Below are positions 3,001 through 43,731 of a stretch of DNA of 64,000 nt, in pieces. The notes under the pieces were generated by a model. It saw nothing but the letters and a program-made list of their open reading frames with translations. It searched no databases and was not told the origin of the DNA. How positions within the stretch are numbered: the first letter of the stretch is position 1; every line of letters begins with the position of its first letter. Where the stretch lies: contig QZJE01000013.1 in the NCBI GenBank assembly GCA_003599235.1, positions 540 through 64,539 of the forward strand. The letters run 5' to 3'. Source of the DNA: Actinomycetota bacterium. GTDB lineage: Bacteria > Actinomycetota > Aquicultoria > SURF-47. The position numbers were made by a program, and so were the translations under genes.

Positions 3001-6000
3001 CGTCGCTGGCACTGCCGGCATTAGGATTACCATAGTACATATAGATTGTCTTATTAGAGTTAGCTTTTATCTCAGGTACCTTAATCCATACTATGGCCTC
3101 TTCTGAGCGCTTATAGCTTTCTATCCAATAGTTAAGCTCAGCTACCCCGTCTGAGTCAGTAAAACGCAAGTCCGAGAAGTTATTCTGCATTTTGCTGACA
3201 TAAGGTACTTTTACTTTAATTTGATAGTCGGTTAAGGTGCTTGAACTATCTTTATTGTCTACTTTTAAGCTAGCCCTATTGGGCCAAGCCTGGCCATACC
3301 ATTGCTTAGTGGTAGTAGGATTGCCAGAAATGACAGGAATTAAACCCAAGTCTGAACCAGAAAAACCGTTTCCATTGCTTTGACTATTTGCTTCGGGATT
3401 TCCGTAGTACATATATATGGTTTTTATCGAAGTGGCTTTAATTAACGCAACTTTTACCCATACAGTAGCTTGCTTGGAGTCTGTTTTATCTTCTATCCAA
3501 TAAGGTAGCTCAGTTTGTTTGTTGGAGTCAGTGAAACGCAAGTCGGAAAAGTCGGCCTTCATGCCGGTGTCGTAATCGATGCTTATCTTAACCTGGTAAT
3601 CAGTTAAGTCCTCGGGGTTATAAAGATTATTAATCATCAACGGAGCTCTTCTAAGCCAAGCTGAATCGTACCAGGTGTCTGGATTAGTGGGAGTGTTATT
3701 ATCGCCTTGTAGAACTAGCTGGCCGTTGGCGGGGTCGTGATAGGCGTTAGCGTTCTTGCTGTTCCATAGCACTGGGTTAAATACTGAGAAGTCGTCTGCA
3801 AATAGATCATAGAGGCCGCTAGACTCCTTAGCAACTGACTTAATGATATTGCCGTTCTTATCGTAGTAATAGCGGTAGGTTGATAGTTCATCTACCCCCT
3901 GAGCTCCGTTGTCCCTAGCATTGCTGATTGAAGTTAGCTTGGAAGCAGCATCGTAGTCATAGTTAGTAATTAAACTGCTTAATGCATTGAGGGGACTGGT
4001 TATTTGGTCGATATTATTGCTCTTGCCGCCTTTGTCGTAGGAGAAATCAGACAGAGTTTTGCCACTATTATTAGAAATATAATCAAGCTTACTACTTGAA
4101 TTATATTCGTACCTCGTTTCAACCGTTGAATCGTTAATATTCTTTATTTTGTCATCTGGATCATATTGGAAATTAATAACTTTGTTCGAAGCATCTTTAA
4201 CGCTACCAATCATGTCATCATTGTTATATCTATATTCATATGATGTTTGAGATTGACCACTTGCTGGATTCTTAGTTACAGTTTCTACTAAATTTCCCAT
4301 CCAGTCGTATGAATTTTCTACGTCAACACTAGACTGTATATTTCCTTCGGCGTTCAGCTTAGTTAGGTTGCCAGCACTATCATAGTTTAGGCTTTGATTT
4401 TTTTCATTTGGTTGAATAATGTTCTCAGTTAAACCCGAATTATTGTAGTTAGTTTCAACTGTTTTTACGTTTTGATCGGTTTCAGTAGTTACCTGATCTG
4501 AAGCGTTATAGGCGGCAGCTGTGGAGGTGTTGTCCGGAGCGATTACTTTAGTCTCGTTTTGATTATTATCATATTCATAGTTTGTTTTATTTAGACTTCC
4601 ATCTTTAACAGTAGACAAGTTGTCGTTTTGATTATAGTTATAGCTAACTACATTATTTTTACCGTCAGCCGTTGTTCTTTCGTTTCCCTCCTTATCATAA
4701 GTAGTTTTAGTAACATTGCCAGTTTGATCCCCCGTAGCTACTTCATTGCCGGCTTTATCGTACAGACTCACTGAAGTACCTTCAGGGCTTCCCTGCTTAG
4801 TAACGTTACCAAAGCTATCATAGGCATATGCGGTCCAGTTACCGTCAGAAGCAGTTTCTTTGATTAAGCGGTTTAGTTTATCGTATTCATAGGTAGTCTC
4901 ACCATTGCGAAAGTTGTTAATTTCTTTTGTTTTGTTTCCATTTTCATCATACTGATAAGAATACCTAGCCCCTTTTTTATTATTTTTCTCTAATAGCTGA
5001 CCTGCCACATTGTATGAGTAGGTATTATAGCCCTTGGTGGTCGAGCTTCCATCGGTATTGTTGTTAAAGGCCTGAACAAAAATAACATTACCTGCAGCAT
5101 CATAAGTATTTTCAGTAACTGAATAGTCTCCGTTATCATTTGCCGGCTCTTTTTTTCTAATAACTCTTCCAAGTTCATCATATTCGGTGAGACTAAAGTC
5201 CATCCCTGCTTTTTGTTCTTTAGTTTTTCTGCCAAGTGAATCGTACTCAAAGGCAGTACTTACGCCTACCGGGTCTATTGTTTCTATGATATTGCCAAGA
5301 GCATCGTAACGATTATTAGCAACTCCTCCTTCAGGAGTTGTTTGAGTTACTTGATTGCCATTGTCGTCATAGGCATAGCTAGTAGTATTGTTATCAGGGT
5401 CAGTCTCTGATAAAAGATTGCCTTTGTCGTCGTAAGTGTAGTTGGTAGTCTTACCTGTCGGCGTGGTTTCAGCCAATACCAAGTTCTGTTGATTATATGA
5501 GCGTTCAGTAACCCTATGTCTGGCACTATAGCGAGCTTGGTCAGCGAGATATATTTGCTCATCTTCATTTGCATCATGGTCATGATTGATTTCTTTTAGC
5601 ACATTACCATTTGCATCGTATTCATAACTAGTAAAAGTCTTATCCTTATTAATCTGTTTAACAAGATTGTAATCGTTATCATATTCAAAATAGCATTCGC
5701 TGCCATGCTTAAATGGCTGGCTAAGCTCGGCGGAGGGAATATTTTCTTTAGCAAAGGCCGGGCCCCAGATATCGTTCCATAGTTGCTTTTTCTCCCACTG
5801 GATTTCTTTCCTGGCTACCACTTCAGCCTCTAAGTCATCAGCATCTTCGTCAAAATCATCGTAGGATTCATCTAGCCAATCGAGGTCTTCTTCATCTAAT
5901 CCCAGCTCTTCTTCATAGAAATCTTTATAGACCGTATAGTAGACAAGATATTCATGAGCAATTTCTTGCTCAACTGAGGCTCCCGGAAAGAAAGGTTTTT

Positions 6001-32621: not shown

Positions 32622-35600
32622 CTATTTCACTATCAGCCAATTACTAGCCACTCTAGCCTGAGTATTACCAGCCCTGTCTGTAGCTAACACGTAATATCTG
32701 TACTTGCCTCTTTTAAGTCTTATCCTTATTCTCTTGACTTTCAGCTTATTGATTGCCGTTAAACCCAGTCTAATTGTTTTATAAGTTTTTAAGTAGACTC
32801 TCTTTTTGCCCCTTATTTTCTTAACTGCCTTTTTCTTTATTACTAAAGATACTTTAGCTTTACTCGATAGCGAGTCAGCTACTTTCCAATAGAGTTTAGC
32901 TATTTTTCCTCTTCTAACAACAGATTTTTTAGGAGCATAGGTCTTTGGTTTAGTGTTATCTACCGTAACCATCTGAGTTATTTGGTTTTCGTTTCCTAAG
33001 ATGTCTCTTACAACATATATTAGCTGATGAGGACCATCATTAATGCCTCTAGTGTCCCAGGTAACCGATTTTGCCCCGCTACCTACAGCTGAAGTTGCCG
33101 GATCATCAATGTAGACCGTAAAGGAGCCTATACCACTAGCATCAACAAATGACGGGGACAATACTACTTTGCCTTTTACTAACTGACCTTCTGATAAGGT
33201 ACTCATAGCTAGAGTTGGAGGAGTAGTATCATAGTTATAAACAAATGTTTGCCAAGGACTTACGTTTCCTACATTATCTGTCGCCCTTACTTTAAAGTAG
33301 AAAGTGCCGTCTGAAGGTACTGATACTTCAGGATAAGTGTTAGACTCTGCGCTATCGGTAGGAACATCTCCATTGATATTATTGCCGAAGTAAATATCAT
33401 AGCGGCTAAAACCGCTGCCTTTGTTGCCGTCTTTAGAAGCTTCCCAATAAAAGCTTGGAGCTTGATTATTTGTCCAGCTCCCACTAGCTATTCCGTGAGT
33501 CTCGATAATTGTGCCTGGAGTACTTGGAGCTGACGGATCACATTTATAGGTAAAAACCGTTTCAGCAGCAGTTTCATTGCCAGCCTTGTCTTTTACCTTA
33601 ACTCTTAGATAATATGTTCCCTCAGCTGTTATCTTGCCCGGCTCTAATAGATTAGAAGTTAAATAACCGGTGGTTGCTGTTTGAGTAGCTGAAGGTGTCC
33701 CATTTGGGTTAGTGCCGAAATAATAAGTATATCCTTCAATTCCGCTAGAGGTATCTTGCCAGTTCAGTTCAAACGAAGGGTTGCTTTCAGCAGTAAAAAC
33801 ATCACTTTCTACATTATTGTTTTCTATTACAGCAACATCTTGTTTTTCCGGTGCAGTTATGTCAGCACGATAGATAAATTCCCTCCAACCACTGGTCTTG
33901 CCAGCTAAGTCTTTAGATCTAACCTTTAAGTGATAGATGCCATCTTCGCTGATTGATGGAGGAGTAAAACTACGGTTGTTTATAGCCGTCGACTCAAAAG
34001 GAGGAGTGGGAATCTCATCGGTATCCCAAGATATTTCATACTCAGCTAAGCCGGATGTTCCACCAGCTGGCTCATCCCAGATAAAGCTGGGGTTGGTTCT
34101 CTTTGTCCAAGGATCATTGTTAGCTATTCCATGGATTTCAGTAATTGCTCCTGGCTCAGAAGGAAGAACTGAAGAAAACCTATAGATAAAAATCTCTGCC
34201 GGAGAGCTTACATTGCCGGCATTATCAATAGCTACTACTTTTAGAAAATAAGTGTTATCAGCCGTTATTATAGGCGGCTGAAAAGTGTTGCCGCTGATTG
34301 GAGTGCTTGGAACCTGAGAAGGATCTGTGCCCCAGTAAACTCTATAACCAGCAACAGAACTTGTTTCATCAATCCAGTTAAACCTAAAAGAAGGATTGAT
34401 AAGTGAGGTATAGCTGCCGCTTTCTGTGCCATGAGTTTCTTCAATAGCAGCCATCCCTTCCATAGGTTTAGGTGTTTCAACATCTGCATTATAACGATAT
34501 GTTTTTGGATCTGATATATTCCCGGCTGTATCTTTTACCCATACCTTAAGATAATATGAACCATCTTCATCTATGGTGGGGTTAAAAGTTTGCTCGATTT
34601 GATCAGGCTGATTAGGTATTAAAGCAGTTGGATTTGTTCCCCAATATATTCTATAAGTATCTAGTCCGCTAATATTGCAATCAGAGCTTAAGTAGAAATT
34701 AGGGCTTATGTTATTTGACCATGGACCATTATCGGGTACATCTGCCGTTATATTATTCATGATTGGCTTGGAGGCGTCATACTTAAAGACAAATACAGTT
34801 TCGGTAGCTGCTTGGTTACCGGCATTGTCTTTAGCTCTAACTCGCAGGTAGTAAGTACCTTCAGTTGTCAGGGCAGCCGGGTCAATGGTGGTTCCGGTTA
34901 CATAAGTTGCAGGAGTGCCAGATGAGCTAGGGCCGAAATAATAGGTGTAGCCGGCAAGGCCGCTCTCATCATCGTCACCGTTTAACTCAAAGCATGGATC
35001 AGCGTTGTTAGTCCACTCATTATCTACTACTGCGTGGGTCTCCATTGCAGTTCCGTTTGTTGGAGAGCTAACATCGGCTCTATATGTAAAAATATCTGAC
35101 CAAGCACTTACTCTTCCAACATTATCTATCGCCCTTATCCTTAAATAATAAACACCGCTTTCAGATAAGGTAGCCGGTGTAAACGTAGAGTTATTTACAT
35201 TATCATACGGAGGAGGACACAAAGAATCAGTTCCAAAATAAACGTCGTAGCTCTCGATTCCGCTACCACTATCAGTTGAGTTAGCCCATGAAAAACTAGG
35301 ATTGTTGATATTGGTTACAGGGTCATTGCTATTATAGCCATGAATCTCTGTAATAGAGATAGGCTTTGTGGGAGCATTTCCATCGTATTTATATATATAC
35401 TGTTCAACGGCACTTTCTTTGCCGGTATTATCTCTTGCTTTTACTTTTAAGTAATAAGTGCCCTCAGCTGTAAGCGGGCTAGGTGTAAAATTATTACTGG
35501 TTGTTTCAGCAGCTGGAGTCCCGGCACTGTCAGGACCAAAGTAATAGATATATTTCTGAATACCGCTTTCATTATCTTCCCAATTAAATCTAAAACTAGG

Positions 35601-36674
35601 ATTATTTTTACTTGTCCAGGTTTCGCTCTCAATACCGCTTGTCTCTTCAATGGCATCTTTTCCCGTTATGACATCAGGTGGCAGAGTATCTACAATATAG
35701 GTTCGATTAACTGTAGCCACATTATTAGCCCTGTCATAAGCAGTATATGTAACCGTATGAGCTCCGTTGCTGGCAGCATCAGTAGGCACAACCCAGGAAT
35801 GGTTAAAAGGATACCCTGTAATCTCGATATTATCATCATCAATAACAAAAGCAGTTCTATCATAATCCAAGCCTGAATCCTCTTCATGAGGCTGGATTGT
35901 AAAATTTACCGAGCCGCTAACCAAGCTGTTATCTGCGGGGCCGGTAAAGTCAACTGTGGGAGCAGTTGTATCGTTTGCAAAATTATCACTGCCTTTAAAA
36001 ATAGCATTGCCAAATGTGCTGGGACTATATAATGAAGAGCCACTTGGCCATACCCCAGCATAACTAGGAGTTTGTACAGTTTCACCTACAGACAAGCCAA
36101 ATGTTTTACTTGTAGTAGATGTAAGGCCTAATTTAGAAAAATATATCTTAAACTCGGCTTCCCAATAAGTTGAACCAACAATTCTCTTGGCGCTCCATTT
36201 GTTGGTTGTCTCACTCGAGTAAGTAACACTGGTATTGTAGCCATACCCATTTCCTTTAGCTTCAATATTTTCTCCATCAGATTTTCTGATAGTAAGCATG
36301 TAATCGCTACTGTCAGCTGAATTGCCATTATGGTTTAGATCTAAGCCAATCCTGGCAAAGTTGTTAGAAGAATTGCCGCCGTCAGGGATATAGAATCCAA
36401 CGTACAAATAACTTCCGTTTGTTTTAAAATAAGCACATCCCTGTTGGCCGGTAACAGTAGTAAAATATGCTCTTTTTTCCCCGCTAGCAGTATCTGTCCA
36501 TTCGTTTACACTAGGGTCTATATTTCCATCATAGGTAACAGTTGTTCCACTACTAATATTTGCTCTACTTAAAGCATCGTCGTGAGCAAAAGAAATTGAG
36601 GGAAACATGGCAGCGGGAATTAAATTTAAGACTAAAACCAAAGATATTAACGAAGCTATTGTCTTCCTTATCAT
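32622..36674 (-). CDS. Large secreted surface protein with about nine FN3/Ig-like repeats and a Lys/Arg-rich C-terminal module
   Basis: 1350 aa. Signal peptide. Repeated motif YYFG.....TP......T...P..L..EGTYYL.V.A.DNAGN. C-terminal ~110 aa alignable with the C-terminus of the 8719..11436 protein. Confidence 0.8.
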   Translation of the reverse strand: MIRKTIASLISLVLVLNLIPAAMFPSISFAHDDALSRANISSGTTVTYDGNIDPSVNEWTDTASGEKRAYFTTVTGQQGCAYFKTNGSYLYVGFYIPDGGNSSNNFARIGLDLNHNGNSADSSDYMLTIRKSDGENIEAKGNGYGYNTSVTYSSETTNKWSAKRIVGSTYWEAEFKIYFSKLGLTSTTSKTFGLSVGETVQTPSYAGVWPSGSSLYSPSTFGNAIFKGSDNFANDTTAPTVDFTGPADNSLVSGSVNFTIQPHEEDSGLDYDRTAFVIDDDNIEITGYPFNHSWVVPTDAASNGAHTVTYTAYDRANNVATVNRTYIVDTLPPDVITGKDAIEETSGIESETWTSKNNPSFRFNWEDNESGIQKYIYYFGPDSAGTPAAETTSNNFTPSPLTAEGTYYLKVKARDNTGKESAVEQYIYKYDGNAPTKPISITEIHGYNSNDPVTNINNPSFSWANSTDSGSGIESYDVYFGTDSLCPPPYDNVNNSTFTPATLSESGVYYLRIRAIDNVGRVSAWSDIFTYRADVSSPTNGTAMETHAVVDNEWTNNADPCFELNGDDDESGLAGYTYYFGPSSSGTPATYVTGTTIDPAALTTEGTYYLRVRAKDNAGNQAATETVFVFKYDASKPIMNNITADVPDNGPWSNNISPNFYLSSDCNISGLDTYRIYWGTNPTALIPNQPDQIEQTFNPTIDEDGSYYLKVWVKDTAGNISDPKTYRYNADVETPKPMEGMAAIEETHGTESGSYTSLINPSFRFNWIDETSSVAGYRVYWGTDPSQVPSTPISGNTFQPPIITADNTYFLKVVAIDNAGNVSSPAEIFIYRFSSVLPSEPGAITEIHGIANNDPWTKRTNPSFIWDEPAGGTSGLAEYEISWDTDEIPTPPFESTAINNRSFTPPSISEDGIYHLKVRSKDLAGKTSGWREFIYRADITAPEKQDVAVIENNNVESDVFTAESNPSFELNWQDTSSGIEGYTYYFGTNPNGTPSATQTATTGYLTSNLLEPGKITAEGTYYLRVKVKDKAGNETAAETVFTYKCDPSAPSTPGTIIETHGIASGSWTNNQAPSFYWEASKDGNKGSGFSRYDIYFGNNINGDVPTDSAESNTYPEVSVPSDGTFYFKVRATDNVGNVSPWQTFVYNYDTTPPTLAMSTLSEGQLVKGKVVLSPSFVDASGIGSFTVYIDDPATSAVGSGAKSVTWDTRGINDGPHQLIYVVRDILGNENQITQMVTVDNTKPKTYAPKKSVVRRGKIAKLYWKVADSLSSKAKVSLVIKKKAVKKIRGKKRVYLKTYKTIRLGLTAINKLKVKRIRIRLKRGKYRYYVLATDRAGNTQARVASNWLIVK

Positions 36675-36834: not shown

Positions 36835-37323
36835 TTATTTTTTGTGGTTGCGGCTAATCTTTAAGATACGGTATTGCAGCTGGCCTTGGGGTGTTTCTAC
36901 GGTAACGGTTTCTCCGGCTTTTTTATCCATAATAGCTTGTCCAACTGGAGATTCATTCGATATCTTATGGTTTGTCGGGTCTGCTTCGGCAAAACCTACC
37001 ACTAAATAATCCATTTTTTCTTTAGTTTCTAAATCCTTTAATGTCACCAAAGAGCCTAAAGAAACTTTGCTGGTAGTAGCCCGGCGGTCATCAATAACTT
37101 TAACGTTAGATAGCATATCTCTTAGCTGAGAAATACGGCCTTCTACAAAAGCTTGCTCATTTTTGGCATCGTCGTATTCAGAGTTTTCGCTTAGGTCGCC
37201 AAACTCAATTGACTGCTTTATTCTATCAGCCACTTCTTTTCTCTTGGTAGTGGTTAGGTGATTAAGTTCTTCTTCTAGCTTTTTATACCCTTCCGGGGTT
37301 AACACTACTTCTTTTTGCGACAT
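36835..37323 (-). CDS. greA: Transcription elongation factor GreA
   Basis: 162 aa. Coiled-coil N-terminus, FKBP-like C-terminus. Confidence 0.9.
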   Translation of the reverse strand: MSQKEVVLTPEGYKKLEEELNHLTTTKRKEVADRIKQSIEFGDLSENSEYDDAKNEQAFVEGRISQLRDMLSNVKVIDDRRATTSKVSLGSLVTLKDLETKEKMDYLVVGFAEADPTNHKISNESPVGQAIMDKKAGETVTVETPQGQLQYRILKISRNHKK

Positions 37324-37538
37324 AAATTACCTTTCTGTACTGCACTCAAGCGTTCACTGTGCAATGCTAGCAATGAAGTAAACTCCTGTATTATAAGAAA
37401 ATTATTTACTCTTGTAAAGCAAAAAATACTCTATATTATGTAGTATTGATAGCACTATAAGTGATTGACTAATTAGCGATAATACGTTAGCATTTAAACT
37501 AACTGATTTCTATCATATTAGAAAGGAGGTGAACTGTA

Positions 37539-38120
37539 ATGAAAAAATTTATTACCCTTTTAGTTCTTTTTTGCTTAGCAGCTATGATGATAACCAATTT
37601 AGTTTATGCTGGCAGTCAATCACCTCAATGGGCTAAACCATGCCGTATACAAAAAAACACTTATTGGACAAAGCTTATTTTTTATACTGGTAAACTATCC
37701 ATGTGTTATATGCCGGTTCCAATGAGTAAAGCATTTAAAAATTCCTATTTTTTCTTAAGTGCTACTACTCATGCCACAACCGTAAAAAATGAAAACACCA
37801 GAGATTACACAAAACAGTACGACTGTTACTGGATTTATGCAAAAGCTACCGCCAGTATTAAAGGTTACTGGAAATACGGCAGTAGAGCTAAAAAGTATTT
37901 TAAGCACACTATGAAACCCAGAGCAGACAGTAACTACTCATCTAAAGTAAGCTACCGTAATTCGATAGCCCATTCTCTTGGTTACTGGCAAGCTCCAAAA
38001 GGCTATAAGTTCCAATCCTTTTATGCTTCTGCTAAAGGCTCGCATGCCTTAAAAATACGCAGAACTGGACTAAAGTACACAGTTTATACTAAGACTGCTA
38101 TGAGAAGATCCAGACCTTAG
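37539..38120 (+). CDS. Secreted Tyr/Lys-rich protein; possible lactococcin-972-like bacteriocin domain
   Basis: 193 aa. RBS AAAGGAGGTG. Signal peptide. Segment THATTVKNENT...YWIYAKATASIKG resembles, from memory, the Lcn972 core THSATVVNNNTG...VWAKATVG. Confidence 0.6.
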   Translation: MKKFITLLVLFCLAAMMITNLVYAGSQSPQWAKPCRIQKNTYWTKLIFYTGKLSMCYMPVPMSKAFKNSYFFLSATTHATTVKNENTRDYTKQYDCYWIYAKATASIKGYWKYGSRAKKYFKHTMKPRADSNYSSKVSYRNSIAHSLGYWQAPKGYKFQSFYASAKGSHALKIRRTGLKYTVYTKTAMRRSRP

Positions 38121-38128
38121 AGTATCAA

Positions 38129-38166
38129 AAACAGCTAGTCTTTAGATGTCTAGGGGCTAGCTGTTT
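38129..38166 (+). terminator. Stem-loop AAACAGCTAG ... CTAGCTGTTT followed by a T-rich tract
   Basis: 10-bp perfect inverted repeat 9 nt after the stop of the 37539..38120 gene. Loop is 18 nt, so the call is tentative. Confidence 0.35.
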
Positions 38167-38205
38167 GCTTATTATTAAGTGCCCGCTCTATGATAAGATA
38201 GCGTT

Positions 38206-39147
38206 GTGAATAAAAAAAAATTATCCCTTAGATTTATTATTATTTTTACCTTAATTATTTTTATTCTCATAGCTAGCTGCAAACAAAAAGATGTTAGCGA
38301 CCAGTCAAGCCAAGAAACAGAAGCCGTTGGAACTAGATTTTCAATTTCTAATCCACCCTTAAAAGAAGACGACCCAGGTACTAAACTTGTTTATACACTA
38401 AATCCCAATGCCGCCTTTAAGGCCACTTATGAATTAGAAAACTTAAGAAATAACCGAAATTATCTGCTACTTTGTTTTTTAGACTACAACCAAGAACCGT
38501 TAATCATCGATAACAAAAAAAACTCTCTTTTTAAAATCAATGTTAAGCCTGGACAAAAAAAGTACTGGCGGTTTAAAACAAATACGATAAAAAACGGCTT
38601 TCATGATTTTGCTACCCTGTTGATTTGGGACCCTGAGATTCATAGGCTCGACAAAGATTACAGAATAGAAAGTGACTTTAATCTAATAGCAACCAACCGA
38701 GCCAATATCATTGCTGATGGTTCAAACCCACCTGCATTTTCATTTATCACTGCCCCAAGCAAGCAATCCCAAAGCAAAGAGCCATATGATGGAATAAGAA
38801 TAAATAAGCAAGCTAATAACCTTGATTACTGGTTAATAGAAAAGGCTTTATCCGGTAAGAAAATCAATTACTATATTCATGTAGCCAGCAGTGAAAAACA
38901 ACCAGTAACTTACGCCTTAATTGCTTTACTTGATTATAAGCAAATACCGTTAAATAAATCCAAAGTGTTGTTTGCAAAAGTAAACCCTAATCAAGTAGTT
39001 ACTTTTCCGGCAAGCTTTACGGCTCCTATGCAAAAAGGAACTCATGAGCTAATGCTTATCAGGATTAAAAACCCTTATAAAAGGTTAACAAGCGATGATG
39101 ATACATTAATAGAACCAAGTATCCGAGTTCCTATCGTTGTTAAGTAG
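38206..39147 (+). CDS. Hypothetical lipoprotein with internal two-domain duplication
   Basis: 313 aa. Lipobox LIASC. Duplicated motif YLLLCFLDYNQEPL / YALIALLDYKQIPL. Confidence 0.6.
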   Translation: MNKKKLSLRFIIIFTLIIFILIASCKQKDVSDQSSQETEAVGTRFSISNPPLKEDDPGTKLVYTLNPNAAFKATYELENLRNNRNYLLLCFLDYNQEPLIIDNKKNSLFKINVKPGQKKYWRFKTNTIKNGFHDFATLLIWDPEIHRLDKDYRIESDFNLIATNRANIIADGSNPPAFSFITAPSKQSQSKEPYDGIRINKQANNLDYWLIEKALSGKKINYYIHVASSEKQPVTYALIALLDYKQIPLNKSKVLFAKVNPNQVVTFPASFTAPMQKGTHELMLIRIKNPYKRLTSDDDTLIEPSIRVPIVVK

Positions 39148-39215
39148 ACAGTATTTCAAAAATTATTTATAAATTATCAGATAATTACTTGTTACGTTCT
39201 TTTGAGTGTTGCCGG

Positions 39216-39503
39216 CTATGGTCTTCTTGTCGAGCCTCGAAGTCTTTTGTGAAATTTCCTGACTTCTTCTTCAGCTTCTTTTTTACTTAAGCCTTTGGCC
39301 ATAAACTCATCTTTTAGCTCCTGATGTATTTGCTCTTCTAAGGAAGGGCGACTTTGGCCAAATCTCTTATGGATACCAATATCATCAGGACGATAACTGC
39401 CACCCCGAACACGTTTTGTTTTTATGCAATGCAAGCATAGATCATCACTATCAATTATTGGCGTACCACAGTTTTTGCATTTCATAGGAATGTTTATACC
39501 CAA
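39216..39503 (-). CDS. Small zinc-ribbon protein with basic C-terminal tail
   Basis: 95 aa. CKNCG...CLHC. Confidence 0.45.
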   Translation of the reverse strand: MGINIPMKCKNCGTPIIDSDDLCLHCIKTKRVRGGSYRPDDIGIHKRFGQSRPSLEEQIHQELKDEFMAKGLSKKEAEEEVRKFHKRLRGSTRRP

Positions 39504-39797
39504 AGCCTCAAGCAGTAAGCTGTAAGCTTATGGCTCATAGCTTCAACCACTTACCCCTCTTAACCAGGCATTTAAATCGTTTATTTTTAAAAAAACATCA
39601 TATTTTCTAATTTTATGGGTAAAAACAATAACCGTAGCTATTGATAATTAACGGAGGTTGCAATTTCTCATATTGATTTTCCTGATGGGGTAATACCTTT
39701 TACTTATTGCATAATCGGCTTTGTTTTAGCCGGCATTGTACTAGCTGTTTGCACGCGTAACACTGAAAGCAAATTAGTTAGAAAAAAGGTTCCTTTA

Positions 39798-40517
39798 ATG
39801 GGAGTGCTTTTTGCCGCGATGTTGTGTGCAATGTCAATACCGCTTGGCATTATCCCATTTCATTTAAGCCTGGCTGTCTTAACCGGGATTTTAATAGGGC
39901 CTTGGCTAGGGTTTTCTGCTGTTTTTGTCATTGTTTTTTTTCTGGCTTTGCTTGGACATGGAGGCTTAACGGTAGTAGGAATTAACGCCTTAGTAGTAGG
40001 CTCAGAAGCCATCTTTGGTTACTATTTCTTCAAATTATTCAGTAGTTTAATTAAAAACAAGGTGGCAGGCAGTGCTATTAGCACTGTTTTATCTTTAGCA
40101 ATCTCAATCACTTTGCTTATTAGCATTATTTCAATTGCCCAAATCAACCCGGATAAAATAATCCCTGAAAAAAAAGCCCCGTTTTTGCAAAAAGAAGGCA
40201 AACTTGCAGTGATTGTTCAAACAACAAAATACCAGCCCCGGGTAGAAACGCTAAAGCCTTTTGAGCTGCAAAAAAGCGCCCCTATTGAACAGTCATCTAC
40301 AGTTACCCGTTTTGCAGGTATTGTCTTGCCTATTGCTTTGCTTTGCATAATTATCGAATCTGCCATAACTAGCTTGACCATCCTTACCATAAAAATAATT
40401 AAACCCGCACTGCTAGATGATGACGCTGTATTAAAAATAGCAGATAGGATAGAAGAACAAGTAGCTGAGATTAGCTACATAGTAGTAAACGGAAATGACA
40501 ATAAAGAAGCTGCCTAG
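39798..40517 (+). CDS. Polytopic membrane protein, CbiM / ECF-transporter-like; N-terminus probably extends upstream
   Basis: 239 aa from the ATG. Upstream the same frame is open from the stop at 39645 and encodes ISHIDFPDGVIPFTYCIIGFVLAGIVLAV (a TM helix). GGAGG at 39653-39657 lies 5 nt before an in-frame ATT at 39663. Confidence 0.55.
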   Translation: MGVLFAAMLCAMSIPLGIIPFHLSLAVLTGILIGPWLGFSAVFVIVFFLALLGHGGLTVVGINALVVGSEAIFGYYFFKLFSSLIKNKVAGSAISTVLSLAISITLLISIISIAQINPDKIIPEKKAPFLQKEGKLAVIVQTTKYQPRVETLKPFELQKSAPIEQSSTVTRFAGIVLPIALLCIIIESAITSLTILTIKIIKPALLDDDAVLKIADRIEEQVAEISYIVVNGNDNKEAA

Positions 40518-40569
40518 CCCAAGCTTGTGTCTTGAAATCGCTTTGCATTCTTAATAAAGTGTCAGCGAT

Positions 40570-41709
40570 ATGCAAAAAAGATATCAGTTAGCAAATATCG
40601 CTTTTATTTTAATATTACTCGTTCTTTTTGGTTGTAGCTCTAAGATAGCCACAAAAACAAAGCCTATCGAAGTAAAAAAAGCCAAAAAAACAATGCCAAA
40701 AAAACAAGTTACATTTGATAAGCCCTACTATAAGGGAATATCTTATCCGGCCTATAATGCAAAGGTTTATCTTAAAGCCGAATCAGACAGAGAAATTAGG
40801 CGCATCGCCTCAACCGGAGCCAATACTATTGCCTTGGTGCCATTATGGTATACCACCAACTTAACACAGAGCGATATCCATCCCGAGCCAGAAGATACCG
40901 CCACTGACGCCTCATTAATTCACGCTATAAAACTTTCTCATAGCTTGGGAATAAAAGTTAATCTCAAACCTTTTGTCGACCCAAAAACAGGTGGCACCTG
41001 GCGGGCAAAATACCATCCTAAAAACTGGCAAGAGTGGTTTAACAACTATAATGTTTTTATAAAACATTATGCCACCATAGCTCAGCAAAATGGTGTTGAG
41101 CTTTTAACTATTGGCACCGAATATACCAGCAGTGACGGCGTTAGAGAAGCTAATTGGCGAGAAGTTATCAAAAATGTCCGTAATATCTATAAAGGAAAAA
41201 TAACCTATGCCGCTGATTACCAAGACATTAAAAGCGACGGCCCACCATACAGAGGCGGCTACCGCAATATAAGGTTTTGGGATGCACTAGATTATATTGG
41301 CATTGATGGCTACTTTCCCTTGGCCAAAAAGCCCGGTGAAAGTAAACCCCAATTAGTAGCTCGTTGGCAAAAGTGGATTTTTGAACTCGAAAATTGGGGC
41401 TGGGTTAAGGAACAAAAGAAACAAATTATTTTTACCGAAATAGGATATGGAAGCTACCCTGGAACTACTGTTGACACCGGCCACTGGGATAGAAAAACAA
41501 CTACCGTCAGTTTATCTGAACAAGCCAATGCCTACGAAGCTGTCTTTGTTGCTTTTGAGAAAAAACCCTGGTTTGCCGGCATGTATTGGTGGGCCTGGGA
41601 TAACCCGTCTACTTTTGATTGGAAACCTCATATCAGAAAATTCTTCTTTACGCCCAAAGGTAAACCAGCTGAGCGAGTACTGCATCAGTGGTTTAAGAAA
41701 ACAAACTAA
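40570..41709 (+). CDS. Lipoprotein, putative TIM-barrel glycoside hydrolase
   Basis: 379 aa. Lipobox LFGCSS. Candidate catalytic Glu in TIGTEYTS and IIFTEIGYG. Trp-rich pattern typical of clan GH-A enzymes. Confidence 0.5.
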   Translation: MQKRYQLANIAFILILLVLFGCSSKIATKTKPIEVKKAKKTMPKKQVTFDKPYYKGISYPAYNAKVYLKAESDREIRRIASTGANTIALVPLWYTTNLTQSDIHPEPEDTATDASLIHAIKLSHSLGIKVNLKPFVDPKTGGTWRAKYHPKNWQEWFNNYNVFIKHYATIAQQNGVELLTIGTEYTSSDGVREANWREVIKNVRNIYKGKITYAADYQDIKSDGPPYRGGYRNIRFWDALDYIGIDGYFPLAKKPGESKPQLVARWQKWIFELENWGWVKEQKKQIIFTEIGYGSYPGTTVDTGHWDRKTTTVSLSEQANAYEAVFVAFEKKPWFAGMYWWAWDNPSTFDWKPHIRKFFFTPKGKPAERVLHQWFKKTN

Positions 41710-41772
41710 TGTTTTCTCTAGATAAGCCGATATTATAAAAGCAGGCATTAAGCTCTAGACCAAGGGAGAAAT

Positions 41773-43731
41773 ATGGAGTGGTACCCGGCTTCAACATTAA
41801 TAACAGTTATAATAAGTGCGGTTATTGCTTGCTTTACCATGTTTAGAAGCCGAAATCATAGGGCTACAAAAGTATTTTCTTTTCTATTATTAGGAACAAC
41901 CCTCTGGTGTTTAGGCGCTTTCTTGGTTAATATCTCAACACAGGCCAAACAAGCACTTTACTGGACAAGATTTATGCATCTGGCAATCGTCTTTGTGCCT
42001 TCCTTTTTCATCCATTTTGTTATAGCCATGCTTTCAGAAGAAAATAATTGGATTCTAAAGACTTGTTACGGTATCTCTATATTTTTTGCCTTTACCATCT
42101 TAAGCCCTTTGTTGATAACCAAAGTTACCCCTGCTGATTATATTGGCTGGTCATTTTCAACCGGAATACTATATTACCCTTTAGCAGCCTTTTATGTTTT
42201 AGGGTCAACTTACGGTTTTATCAAGCTATACAAATCTTATAACCAGACTTCTACCGGTTACAGAAAAAAACAGCTTCAGTACTTTATCTTTGCTAATCTT
42301 ATCGCCGTTACAGGAATAATAATCTTTTATTTTCTTTCGATTAGCAATCTACCTTTTAAAGTTCCGCCGATGGATAATTTATTTCTTTTAACTTTTATTT
42401 TAATTGTTACCTACGCCATGATATCTTACCGGTTAATTGATATTAGGCTAGCGATAATAAAATTCTTCTTTTTTAGCTTATTTGGTACTTCAGTACTTAT
42501 TTTATTTATTGGATTATTAACCCCAGTCAGCTATCTTGTGTATCAGAAAATAGAATATCCATTTATAGTTGTAGCAGCAGGCGCCTTTGTTCTAACCGTT
42601 GGCATAAGCAAGCCACTGAGAGAAGGACTAATGGGCTATGTTAACCAAATAGTTTACGGCGAAAATCACAAACATGCCAAAGTAATAAAAGATGCCGCTT
42701 CTGCAGTGGTAACAATGCTAGATATCAGAGAATTACTAGGATATGTTATGGAAACAATCGTAAAAGACATAGGCGTAAAAAAAGTGTCTCTGCTGATAAA
42801 AGAAGGTAGTGTCTATAAAGTTAAAGCATCACAAGGGTCGCAAGCTAGAAATTATCTACTAAAAGAAGACTCACCTCTTATTGTCAAGCTTAGCCAAAAT
42901 AAAGATAAAGCCTACATTAGATACGAATTAGAGCGAGAGAATAATCAAACTAATAAGGGGGTAATCCAGGAATTAGATAAAATTGGAGCCGAGCTTATTA
43001 TCCCTTTGGCTTACAAAGAAGAGTTAATTGGGGTGCTTAACTTAGGACTCAAATCATCTGGAAAAATATATTCCCCAACTGATATCGATACCTTAACAAC
43101 GTTAGGCACTAACTTAGGTATTGCCCTGGTAAATGCCAAGCTTTACGCCGAAGCAATATCAGATGCCTTAACCGGGCTGTATCATCACAAATATTTCAAA
43201 TCCCGGCTTGCTGATGAACTATTGCAAGCCAAAACTCTTAAGTATCCATTCTCCGTGATGATGCTTGACCTTGATCATTTTAAGAAGGTAAATGATACCT
43301 ATGGCCATCCTGTTGGAGACGAAGTATTAAAAGAAGTCGCTGACTTGATGAAAGAAAATACTAGATTATTTGATGTAGTAGCCCGCTATGGTGGCGAAGA
43401 GTTTGCCATCATTCTGCCCGGAGTTGGCAAAAACGGACGTAAAAACCATATTCAAACGGTTACCAAAATTGCCGAACGCCTAAGAAAGAAAATCGAAGAA
43501 CATCAATTTTCTTCTTCGAAAATTAAACTGACCATTAGTATCGGTTTAGCCATATATGATGGCAAGGGTAAAAACGTAACTGACAAAAATCTTCTAAAAA
43601 AAGCAGATGATGAGCTTTATATGGCTAAACGGCAAGGACGAAACAGAGTTTGTATCAGTTCCTTTAGTGATCTTCCTGGCAAGCTTGCAGTCGTGTCTAA
43701 CAACGCTGCTCCAAAAGCAAGCGCCAGTTAG
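41773..43731 (+). CDS. Membrane sensor diguanylate cyclase: N-terminal 7TM region, GAF-like middle, C-terminal GGDEF domain
   Basis: 652 aa. RLIDIRL motif in the TM region (paralogous to the 11668..14097 N-terminus). Active-site RYGGEEF. Confidence 0.85.
   Translation: MEWYPASTLITVIISAVIACFTMFRSRNHRATKVFSFLLLGTTLWCLGAFLVNISTQAKQALYWTRFMHLAIVFVPSFFIHFVIAMLSEENNWILKTCYGISIFFAFTILSPLLITKVTPADYIGWSFSTGILYYPLAAFYVLGSTYGFIKLYKSYNQTSTGYRKKQLQYFIFANLIAVTGIIIFYFLSISNLPFKVPPMDNLFLLTFILIVTYAMISYRLIDIRLAIIKFFFFSLFGTSVLILFIGLLTPVSYLVYQKIEYPFIVVAAGAFVLTVGISKPLREGLMGYVNQIVYGENHKHAKVIKDAASAVVTMLDIRELLGYVMETIVKDIGVKKVSLLIKEGSVYKVKASQGSQARNYLLKEDSPLIVKLSQNKDKAYIRYELERENNQTNKGVIQELDKIGAELIIPLAYKEELIGVLNLGLKSSGKIYSPTDIDTLTTLGTNLGIALVNAKLYAEAISDALTGLYHHKYFKSRLADELLQAKTLKYPFSVMMLDLDHFKKVNDTYGHPVGDEVLKEVADLMKENTRLFDVVARYGGEEFAIILPGVGKNGRKNHIQTVTKIAERLRKKIEEHQFSSSKIKLTISIGLAIYDGKGKNVTDKNLLKKADDELYMAKRQGRNRVCISSFSDLPGKLAVVSNNAAPKASAS

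Follow-up and report, generated by a model that had tools for sequence, protein, structure and literature searches.

A rare, apparently mobile two-gene cassette that encodes a small secreted protein and an internally duplicated lipoprotein

ORF1 and ORF2 are adjacent genes in the 64,000-nucleotide stretch of DNA that we analyzed (the window; Table 1). Judging from their sequences and from related loci, they appear to be one copy of a conserved, rare, and horizontally mobile two-gene cassette without a curated family. The first gene encodes a secreted protein and the second encodes a lipoprotein with two homologous domains. We think it possible, though somewhat short of probable, that the cassette encodes a secreted effector and a membrane-tethered binding or immunity protein that protects the producer. 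The original prediction for these genes, which was that ORF1 may contain a core like that of the bacteriocin lactococcin 972 (Lcn972), fared less well: at the sequence level, our comparisons largely refute the assignment of ORF1 to the Lcn972 family.

Table 1. Positions in the window of the two genes of the cassette, their parts, and the upstream neighbor.
Feature	Position	Strand	Description
greA	36835..37323	-	Pfam GreA_GreB_N, 4.9e-30
Shine-Dalgarno sequence AAAGGAGGTGA	37522..37532	+	6 nt before the ATG of ORF1; near-perfect; read from sequence
ORF1	37539..38120	+	ATG start; 193 aa; signal peptide at residues 1-24, mature protein of 169 aa
ORF1 residues 61-104 (PMSKAFKNSYFFLSATTHATTVKNENTRDYTKQYDCYWIYAKAT)	37719..37850	+	Resembles Lcn972 residues 9-50
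17-bp stem-loop, then GCTTATTATT	38129..38166	+	Directly 3' of the ORF1 stop, between ORF1 and ORF2
ORF2	38206..39147	+	GTG start; 313 aa; lipobox LIAS-C25; two homologous domains, predicted to be Ig-like beta-sandwiches
ORF2 domain 1, residues 38-176	38317..38733	+	Motifs LDYNQ and GFHDF; family-invariant Q96, G131, and H133
ORF2 domain 2, residues 190-313	38773..39144	+	Motifs LDYKQ and GTHEL; invariant P290

ORF1 had been described as a secreted protein of 193 residues that is rich in tyrosine and lysine, and this is what we found. Its N-terminus is a typical Sec signal peptide (MKKFITLLVLFCLAAMMITNLVYA, followed by GSQ), and the mature protein contains 18 tyrosines, 32 lysines or arginines, and 4 aspartates or glutamates. 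From this composition, the mature protein has a pI of 10.2 and a net charge of about +28. Because a strong Shine-Dalgarno sequence precedes it and a 17-bp hairpin follows its stop codon, ORF1 is very likely a true gene. The hairpin looks terminator-like or attenuating, and the dG of the intergenic region is -32 kcal/mol. The surroundings were also as described, with the two genes lying between greA and unrelated genes.

The original claim that the lipoprotein is built from two homologous halves was borne out. Profiles of residues 38-176 and 190-313, each built from seven members of the family, match each other with an hhalign probability of 97.4% (E = 9.3e-12), and the two domains share LDY(K/N)Q and G-x-H-(D/E)-(F/L). 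Across an alignment of 12 lipoproteins, the lipobox cysteine is nearly invariant, and Q96, G131, H133, and P290 are invariant. Two members of the family apparently carry a plain N-terminal transmembrane helix instead of the lipid anchor. ORF2 is predicted to fold into two Ig-like beta-sandwiches, and the structural neighbors of this model are generic (TM-scores of 0.25-0.38, including WxLIP bound to WxL, 9i25). ORF2 is similar to P0003 (5.5e-65) and P0004 (5.8e-50), and it has homologs on Bacillaceae plasmids (by tblastn, down to 6e-16, and by profile matches). We considered a metal site, formed by the invariant histidine and glutamine and linked to a nearby CbiM-like gene, and dropped the idea because no other locus carries CbiM.

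Although the lipoprotein family carries a BsuPI label, this does not hold up against Pfam: neither ORF2, nor its separate domains, nor other members matched BsuPI (PF12690) at E ≤ 10. Since Pfam's model is negative, the BsuPI label on D3G1Y1 in UniProt must stem from another signature. A tethered protease inhibitor or envelope-protective binder, with Ig domains like those of BsuPI or alpha-2-macroglobulin and with the small protein as its accessory factor or substrate, is quite improbable. Besides the negative result for BsuPI, the matches to MG and Ig-like domains were generic, and no protease gene is conserved near the cassette loci.

The lipoprotein family occurs at 19 loci with readable upstream DNA (the window and 18 others). 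The hosts are Bacillus cereus-group, Priestia, Cytobacillus, Alkalihalophilus, and Planococcus plasmids, a Coriobacteriia MAG, and metagenome contigs. Co-occurrence of the two genes in other genomes had been proposed as a check, and at all 19 loci, a small gene on the same strand lies directly upstream of the lipoprotein gene. This gene is intact at 17 loci. In B. cereus E33L it is a pseudogene with an in-frame stop, beside an intact lipoprotein gene, and at one locus (L026) there is only a 76-aa ORF. Plasmid p419 of B. mycoides has two tandem paralogs of the partner. When we searched with a core member of the partner family using tblastn, partner homologs turned up only beside a lipoprotein gene. 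Outside the window, pairs of loci have partner and lipoprotein identities of 67/76, 58/71, 36/24, and 27/27%. This co-divergence is as expected for interacting proteins, and comparison of the loci supports a functional pair.

The layout of the cassette recurs as well. Shine-Dalgarno sequences as strong as that of ORF1 precede the partner gene at four numbered loci (L001, L002, L006, and L014). An intergenic hairpin is present in 5 of the 7 loci examined, including the window; the hairpins in this gap at L001, L002, L003, and L013 are of 17-20 bp, in loci that range from 33 to 64% GC.

The genes had been described as accessory-looking, which agrees with their settings elsewhere, as plasmid cargo and near mobile elements. 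The 11-kb MobV plasmid pNM11 of P. citreus carries the cassette as cargo, and the cassettes on Bacillaceae plasmids adjoin Tn3, IS6, ISNCY, and TnpB elements and recombinases. Further copies are on a Rep3/MobA plasmid-like contig and in the Coriobacteriia MAG, which is high-GC. The copy in the window looks chromosomal, with no adjacent mobile elements, in a low-GC MAG of an uncultured actinobacterium. RNPP quorum-sensing regulators lie beside two of the cassette loci.

Most of the upstream partners form a single family that submitters labeled "XoxI," a name for which neither an NCBIfam model nor a relevant paper turned up. Examples of the pair are WP_215559519.1 with WP_215559518.1 (B. mycoides) and BpOF4_21814 with BpOF4_21809 (A. 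pseudofirmus). The pI values of the partners run from 4.8 to 10.2, so being cationic does not typify them. Two sequence blocks mark the family, ...DxIYAKxK... and ...GxHxFExSGY.... Because G-x-H-x-F/L is common to the partners and the lipoproteins, we considered that the partner might be a third copy of the lipoprotein's Ig domain, but HMMs of domain 1, domain 2, and both together, as well as hhalign, gave noise-level scores against six partners, and we rejected this.

ORF2 resembles the XoxI-linked lipoproteins in full-length homology, two-domain build, gene order, and the presence of an upstream gene for a small secreted protein. ORF2 and the lipoprotein at L001 are 42% identical, whereas ORF1 and the L001 partner cannot be aligned. 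An HMM of the partner core recruits the partners from L003, C. kochii, L001, and L006 (L003up, L001up, and L006up for the numbered loci), but not ORF1 (1685/3000 shuffles), and iteration did not change this. Smith-Waterman alignments with shuffles, leave-one-out, core, and iterated HMMs, and hhalign were all negative, and by these comparisons ORF1 is not recognizable as one of the partner family. In a test for the two blocks, ORF1 gave 55/5000 (P ~ 0.011), about as good as one of five negative controls (15/2000), while unseen true members gave 0/2000. Nor is ORF1 a frameshifted canonical partner: six-frame tblastn and HMM searches of positions 37300-38300 of the window with 13 partners found no trace in the other frames. 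Because it does not align with the canonical partners, ORF1 seems to be an effector that is either displaced or very strongly diverged, and an extremely cationic one.

ORF1 also lacks relatives elsewhere. We found none but ORF1 itself among 5.8e9 clusters, and an exhaustive phmmer search of 1.84e9 representatives returned ORF1 and three other proteins (P0006-P0008). Because these are long and repetitive (P0008 is a tandem-repeat sequence), we consider them compositional matches and not homologs. There were zero matches to ORF1 in Pfam, NCBIfam, PADLOC, PHROGs, or the PDB, and the phage collection that we searched had no matches for the cassette. AlphaFold2 modeling of mature ORF1 from its single sequence gave a pLDDT of 29.9 and a pTM of 0.17, values too low for comparing its fold with others. 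By these searches, ORF1 appears to be a sequence orphan in the partner slot of the cassette.

The Lcn972 family (structures 2LGN and 9HKJ) is characterized by lipid II binding and septum-directed antibacterial activity. Lcn972 folds into a beta-sandwich in which each of the two sheets has three strands (2LGN; PMC7476776). The Lcn972 sequence that the original prediction gave is correct (it is identical to PDB 2LGN), and both of the strings that it pointed to, THATTVKNENT and YWIYAKATASIKG, are found in ORF1. What stands of the predicted core is a local, ungapped-like match. BLASTP of this single pair gives 15/44 identities, 22.3 bits, and E = 5e-4. A Smith-Waterman alignment of the same pair has z = 4.4 and was equaled by 0/1000 shuffles; the shuffle P is 0.002-0.003. 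Since shuffles rarely equal the alignment score, the likeness of this pair exceeds composition. With hhalign, ORF1 and the Lcn972 family align over 34 columns of the same stretch with a P-value of 0.025 and a probability of 1.9%.

This local match, along with ORF1 being secreted, cationic, and part of an accessory two-gene unit, might suggest that ORF1 holds a diverged lipid-II-binding beta-sandwich core of the Lcn972 type, with ORF2 as its immunity or export partner. We consider this very improbable, as every family-level comparison that we ran went against it. The original prediction proposed a search with the Lcn972 family profile; neither PF09683 nor TIGR01653 matched ORF1 at E ≤ 10, or matched the isolated 76-aa core of ORF1, while the positive control, Lcn972 itself, scored 3.4e-15. 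Against a custom HMM that we built from six true Lcn972-family proteins, with every filter disabled (--max), ORF1 scored 0.3 bits, and 355/5000 shuffles did as well. A phmmer search of the PDB with ORF1 at E ≤ 10 did not return 2LGN. The end of the Lcn972-like stretch of ORF1 (DCYWIYAKATASIKG) scores 12 bits against the ...DYIYAKAK... block of the partner family. The IYAKA string recurs within the cassette's own partners, and these show no kinship to Lcn972 (hhalign probability of 0.1%). On the profiles, the custom HMM, hhalign, and the PDB search, we reject ORF1 as a homolog of Lcn972 at the family level.

The motifs, size, and gene neighbors of ORF1 do not fit the Lcn972 family either. Six plasmid-borne members of the family share GGxWxYG, (W/F)SNYYHGxKxH(A/S)T, and a C-terminal YY, but ORF1 lacks GGxWxYG, SNYYHGxKxH, and the C-terminal YY and keeps only H-x-x-T-V and AKA(T). 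Those members have precursors of 90-98 aa and a single mature domain of about 60-70 aa; the mature part of ORF1 is about 2.5 times longer (169 aa vs. about 66). In all six of the real Lcn972 loci that we inspected, a large membrane protein is encoded 3' of the bacteriocin gene. Four of these proteins are named as bacteriocin-associated integral membrane protein or DUF1430, and two are unnamed hypothetical proteins (one of them of about 710 aa). The Lcn972 locus on pBL1 also has an ABC ATPase. Lcn972 loci have a polytopic DUF1430 protein of 650-740 aa and an ABC ATPase, whereas ORF1 has neither a DUF1430 or 7-TM protein nor an ABC ATPase nearby and is followed by a 313-aa lipoprotein with tandem Ig-like domains (as modeled). 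The two systems do have in common that a protein secreted by a Sec-dependent route comes first in a small, often plasmid-borne accessory operon, and ORF1 is cationic with a local likeness of 44 residues to Lcn972.

To return to the pair of secreted effector and tethered immunity protein, this proposal builds on the established gene structure, signal peptide, lipobox, duplication, pairing, mobility, and co-divergence, and on the predicted beta-sandwiches of ORF2. In this view, the first gene codes for a Sec-secreted protein of about 105-170 residues that is translated strongly and is rich in aromatic residues and Ser/Thr. The second, on the same strand and usually behind a long hairpin that would pass only part of the transcripts, would give a protein that is lipid-tethered at the outer face of the membrane and presents two tandem Ig-like domains. 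We infer that this protein would bind its own secreted partner on the surface of the cell and that binding would most probably shield the producer from the partner's envelope-directed activity. This would follow the logic of an antibacterial protein that leaves by the Sec route and is countered outside the cytoplasm by an immunity lipoprotein. Immunity-like signs are the intact lipoprotein beside a dead partner in E33L (a single locus), the tandem paralogs on p419, and the RNPP regulators. In the searches that we ran, the cassette proteins had no match among known bacteriocins, toxins, immunity proteins, or defense systems. That ORF2 is 42% identical to the L001 lipoprotein while ORF1 is unalignable with the L001 partner is awkward for a strictly specific fit between toxin and immunity protein.

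NisI is built from two SpaI-like domains of similar structure. By analogy, the lantibiotic immunity lipoproteins NisI and SpaI are the best precedent for a duplicated immunity lipoprotein: as in our reading of ORF2, the protein is lipid-anchored outside the cytoplasm, all-beta, and duplicated internally, and its gene accompanies that of a secreted antimicrobial active on the envelope, as proposed for ORF1. A SpaI-like fold was absent from the structural neighbors listed for ORF2, and there were no genes for lantibiotic biosynthesis or LanFEG in the neighborhood in the window.

By another analogy, membrane-tethered binders of small secreted proteins also use the Ig-like fold, as in WxLIP-WxL (9i25; PMC10599100). 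Tandem Ig-like domains are just as characteristic of adhesins and scaffolds (RbmA and WxLIP), and it is possible, if rather unlikely, that the cassette serves surface display or scaffolding in this manner. The lipoprotein would then anchor a small beta-rich protein, for instance by strand complementation, in an adhesive or matrix structure with no toxin. WxL/WxLIP proteins (DUF916-DUF3324; structures 9i1y and 9i25) are encoded in cell-surface clusters of Lactobacillales and Bacillales, and the small protein has two Trp-x-Leu motifs (PMC10599100). Like WxLIP, ORF2 is membrane-tethered and has two tandem domains that are probably Ig-like. However, neither ORF1, ORF2, nor 12 members of each family matched Pfam's WxL, DUF916, or DUF3324, and a regular-expression scan found Trp-x-Leu nowhere in ORF1 and no more than once in any partner, so the dual motif is missing. 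The anchor is an N-terminal lipid instead of a C-terminal TM helix. Unlike WxL clusters, the cassette has only two genes, has no large WxL or LPXTG protein, and is plasmid- or transposon-borne and patchy, reaching Actinomycetota MAGs. The structural matches are generic, as noted above. For an adhesin, one would less expect an intact anchor beside a dead partner, as in E33L, or an 11-kb plasmid as the carrier, and a hairpin that lowers expression of the anchor relative to the partner is unsuited to a 1:1 surface complex.

More speculatively, and we think this unlikely in full, the cassette may represent a previously unrecognized class of Sec-dependent antibacterial or envelope-active proteins with a tandem-Ig immunity lipoprotein. 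The class would have spread on plasmids and transposons through the B. cereus group, Priestia, and other Bacillales, and into uncultured Actinomycetota, with ORF1 as an extremely cationic effector of recent origin, or a displaced one. If such an effector is still served by a conserved lipoprotein, then immunity would work by shielding the target and not by recognizing the toxin.

In practice, the Lcn972 lead should be abandoned. If the two genes are an effector-immunity pair, they would add antibacterial proteins of a new family, unmodified and secreted through Sec, together with a new type of immunity lipoprotein. If they are a surface-display pair, they would be a lipid-anchored counterpart of WxL/WxLIP outside the Lactobacillales. 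Several hosts of the cassette are cultivable and genetically tractable (B. mycoides, B. thuringiensis, P. megaterium, A. pseudofirmus OF4, and P. citreus with pNM11), so these ideas are directly testable. Either way, families that are labeled as "hypothetical protein," as "XoxI protein," or, misleadingly, as "BsuPI domain-containing" gain an architecture and a testable partnership.

Judging from the sequence of ORF2 and from synteny, the window carries one copy of an uncurated two-gene cassette. The cassette consists of a small secreted "partner" gene and a lipoprotein gene, and ORF1 occupies the partner slot. Both ORFs sit where the original prediction placed them, and its description of ORF1 as secreted and Tyr/Lys-rich is correct: ORF1 has a Sec-type signal peptide, and its mature part (169 amino acids) has 18 Tyr and 32 Lys or Arg versus 4 Asp or Glu (pI 10.2). 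ORF2 has a lipobox (LIAS-C25) and, as was also proposed, is built from two homologous halves: using profiles from seven family members, residues 38-176 match residues 190-313 (hhalign probability 97.4%, E = 9.3e-12), and both halves contain the motifs LDY(K/N)Q and G-x-H-(D/E)-(F/L).

Downstream of ORF2 come, in order, genes for a small Zn-ribbon protein, a CbiM-like protein, a GH113 lipoprotein, and a GGDEF-type protein. ORF1, ORF2, and the last two of these lie in a plus-strand block within a long minus-strand region, and the block is slightly AT-richer (35% GC versus about 40% around it). The CbiM-like protein could be an ECF S-component that is atypical or has lost its N-terminus; we noticed no CbiN/O/Q genes adjoining it. 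The 1350-aa protein just beyond greA resembles large repeat proteins of the surface or adhesin type.

Features at and around the locus (window coordinates)
Feature	Coordinates	Strand	Description
Repeat protein	32622-36674	-	1350 aa; signal peptide; a module of roughly 100 aa repeated about eight times; motifs ...NPSF..W....SG(I/L).(G/S)Y.(Y/V)Y(F/W)G... and ...G.YY(L/F)(K/R)V(K/R)A.D.AGN...; very basic C-terminal tail
greA	36835-37323	-	divergent from ORF1/ORF2
Shine-Dalgarno of ORF1	37522-37532		near-perfect, AAAGGAGGTGA
ORF1	37539-38120	+	ATG start, 193 aa
Plus-strand block	37539-43731	+	35% GC
Hairpin	38129-38166		17 bp, 3' of ORF1
ORF2	38206-39147	+	GTG start, 313 aa
Zn-ribbon ORF	39216-39503	-	95 aa; convergent with ORF2; N-terminal CxxC...CxxC (Pfam Zn_Ribbon_1, weak, E = 0.0056); basic Lys/Arg/Glu-rich C-terminus
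CbiM-like membrane protein	39798-40517	+	PF01891, 1.5e-19, match starting only at position 47; hydrophilic insertion at about residues 120-165
GH113-family glycoside hydrolase	40570-41709	+	lipoprotein signal; PF22612, 4e-56
Multi-TM sensor protein	41773-43731	+	C-terminal GGEEF (GGDEF-type) motif, read from translation

ORF1 had also been proposed to contain a core like that of the bacteriocin lactococcin 972 (Lcn972). The Lcn972 sequence quoted there was exact (identical to PDB 2LGN), and the local match is real: ORF1 61-104 aligns to Lcn972 9-50 with 15/44 identical residues (22.3 bits, E = 5e-4 by BLASTP as a single comparison), and the Smith-Waterman score is better than 1000/1000 shuffles (z = 4.4, Gumbel P ~ 0.002). 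But the resemblance is gone at the family level. The suggested family-profile search, in Pfam and NCBIfam, gave no match at E ≤ 10 to ORF1 or to its isolated 76-aa core (Lcn972 itself matches PF09683 at 3.4e-15), and an unbiased phmmer search of ORF1 against all PDB sequences did not return 2LGN at E ≤ 10. Against a custom HMM from six real plasmid-borne members (from Lactococcus, Streptococcus, Staphylococcus, Enterococcus, Macrococcus, and Bacillus), with all filters off, ORF1 scored 0.3 bits, which 355/5000 shuffles equalled; hhalign gave a probability of 1.9% for ORF1 and the Lcn972 family. The family-defining features in the six-member alignment are GGxWxYG, (W/F)SNYYHGxKxH(A/S)T, an AKAS strand, and a C-terminal YY, and the residues that ORF1 matches are mainly those particular to Lcn972 itself. 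ORF1 is also longer (193 aa, while Lcn972 family precursors have 90-98), and its neighbors differ: a large membrane protein follows the bacteriocin gene in all six Lcn972 loci (annotated in 4/6 as bacteriocin-associated integral membrane protein or DUF1430) and the pBL1 locus also has an ABC ATPase, whereas the ORF1 locus has neither. (A single-sequence AF2 model of mature ORF1 had a pLDDT of 29.9.) From the profiles, custom HMM, hhalign, motifs, size, and neighbors, we reject family-level homology, and we consider it very improbable that ORF1 is an Lcn972-type protein.

On the proposed check for co-occurrence of the two genes in other genomes, a small same-strand gene lies directly upstream of the lipoprotein gene in 19/19 loci with readable upstream DNA. 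Every partner whose N-terminus was read has a signal peptide, with two exceptions: the Alkalihalophilus pseudofirmus partner has none as annotated (a 200-aa cluster member suggests that its start was miscalled), and the L013 partner is cut at a contig end. The second product is membrane-anchored, with a lipobox in most members, and has a tandem Ig-like ectodomain. Gene order and expression architecture are conserved. Seven loci were examined for this: wherever the 5' end of the partner gene is present, a strong Shine-Dalgarno sequence precedes it, and 5/7 have a 17-20 bp perfect hairpin in the 47-91 nt intergenic gap, across 33-64% GC. The pattern is not intact at two loci. In Bacillus cereus E33L (pE33L466, L016 3300-3900), the partner is a pseudogene with an in-frame stop after the signal peptide and only its last 62 codons annotated, and the lipoprotein gene downstream is intact; L026 has only a 76-aa ORF in the upstream slot. 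B. mycoides p419 (L018 2572-3680) has two tandem partner paralogues and then one lipoprotein gene. In the second paralogue (3123-3680), similarity stops at about residue 130 and the gene overlaps the start of the lipoprotein gene; this points to a recent frameshift or fusion.

The partners are recognizable as one sequence family (P = 8e-10 for L014 versus B. mycoides, about 1e-6 for B. mycoides versus Alkalihalophilus and Planococcus). A core partner HMM recruits L003up (0/3000 shuffles), Cytobacillus kochii (2/3000), L001up (5/3000), and L006up (43/3000), where "up" marks the gene upstream of the lipoprotein. We found no NCBIfam model or paper behind the submitter label "XoxI protein" that some partners carry. 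The partners share two recurrent blocks, ...S(I/E)DYIYAKAK... and ...G-(D/N)-H-x-(F/Y)-E-x-S-G-Y..., and a two-block test of members unused in defining them (L025, L027) gave 0/2000. ORF1 gave 55/5000, about as good as one of five negative controls, and no partner-family profile recruited it. Its two-block score is driven by DCYWIYAKATASIKG (12 bits against a partner block), so the string that was likened to VWAKATVG of Lcn972 finds an equal or better match in the partner family, which itself shows no relation to Lcn972 (hhalign 0.1%).

Among 1.84e9 representative proteins, ORF1 has no homologues beyond compositional matches. Its only non-self matches (P0006, P0007, and P0008; E = 3e-10 to 5e-6) are long proteins with 5-20 matched stretches each, and P0008 is a perfect tandem repeat, so the Lys/Tyr/Ser-rich composition of ORF1 can give misleadingly good E-values. 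In pairs outside the window, lipoprotein and partner co-diverge (67/76, 58/71, 36/24, and 27/27% identity), but between the window and L001 the lipoproteins are 42% identical and the partners only about 8%. Because of this rate anomaly, and because we excluded ORF1 as the product of a frameshifted ancestral partner, ORF1 either took the slot as a non-orthologous replacement or diverged to an extreme degree. Its net charge of about +28 (other partners have pI 4.8-9.6) supports an unusual history.

Only six relatives of ORF2 came from word-indexed searches; tblastn against PLSDB then traced the family to plasmids from cultured Bacillales, namely B. cereus E33L and AR156, B. mycoides, B. thuringiensis, Priestia megaterium, P. 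aryabhattai, C. kochii, C. oceanisediminis, A. pseudofirmus OF4, and Planococcus citreus pNM11. Paenibacillus polymyxa has a remnant. Another member is in a Coriobacteriia MAG, and we found none in phages. A genome scan with a lipoprotein pattern, which covered one genome per GTDB species, missed the window's own genome even though ORF2 contains the pattern (ALIALLDYKQ); this MAG ("Actinobacteria bacterium", locus tag C4562_03480, 212-kb contig) appears not to be a species representative in that set. The cassette is horizontally mobile: it is cargo on an 11-kb MobV plasmid and repeatedly adjoins Tn3, IS6, ISNCY, and TnpB elements or recombinases. On a plasmid-like ENA contig (L003 3546-4814) that also carries Rep3, MobA/MobL, and a resolvase, it lies just downstream of an MqsA/HTH + SocA_Panacea antitoxin-type gene and a DUF2188 gene. 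RNPP-type quorum-sensing regulators (HTH_3 + RNPP_C/TPR) flank it in two loci only, A. pseudofirmus OF4 (L019 5128-6087) and C. oceanisediminis (L022 1202-2140 and 4494-5390). The latter has a third small signal-peptide gene 3' of the lipoprotein gene (L022 3791-4240, 149 aa), which bears no relation to the partner motifs (1259/2000 in the two-block test).

We tentatively favor the view that the secreted partner is a putative effector and that the tethered lipoprotein, which would bind it at the outer face of the membrane, provides self-protection. This would fit with the cassette being plasmid or transposon cargo that is patchy across phyla, with E33L, where the lipoprotein is intact but the partner gene dead, with the tandem partners in B. 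mycoides, with a layout that yields more of the first product than of the second, and with the partner homologues, which tblastn with a core partner found only adjoining a lipoprotein gene. The variable charge of the partners weakens it, and strict toxin-immunity specificity does not fit a conserved lipoprotein next to the unrelated-looking ORF1, unless immunity shields the target. The main alternative, which we find only slightly less probable, is a surface-display or scaffold pair that follows the logic of WxL/WxLIP (PMC10599100), a surface protein with a membrane-tethered binder: the architecture is the same, but no WxL/WxLIP membership test placed the cassette in that system. That the lipoprotein is a tethered protease inhibitor seems improbable, as the BsuPI label in UniProt was not reproduced by Pfam.

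Systems of this kind, in which a secreted protein is paired with a cognate beta-sandwich protein tethered to the membrane, are known. Neither of the two protein families has been described, nor have the lipid-anchored tandem-Ig partner and the distribution, and other copies in public genomes are annotated as pairs of "hypothetical proteins". The claim of bacteriocin homology fails, but a tractable and unexplored two-gene module comes to light, and in this bacterium its putative effector slot holds an unexplained orphan.
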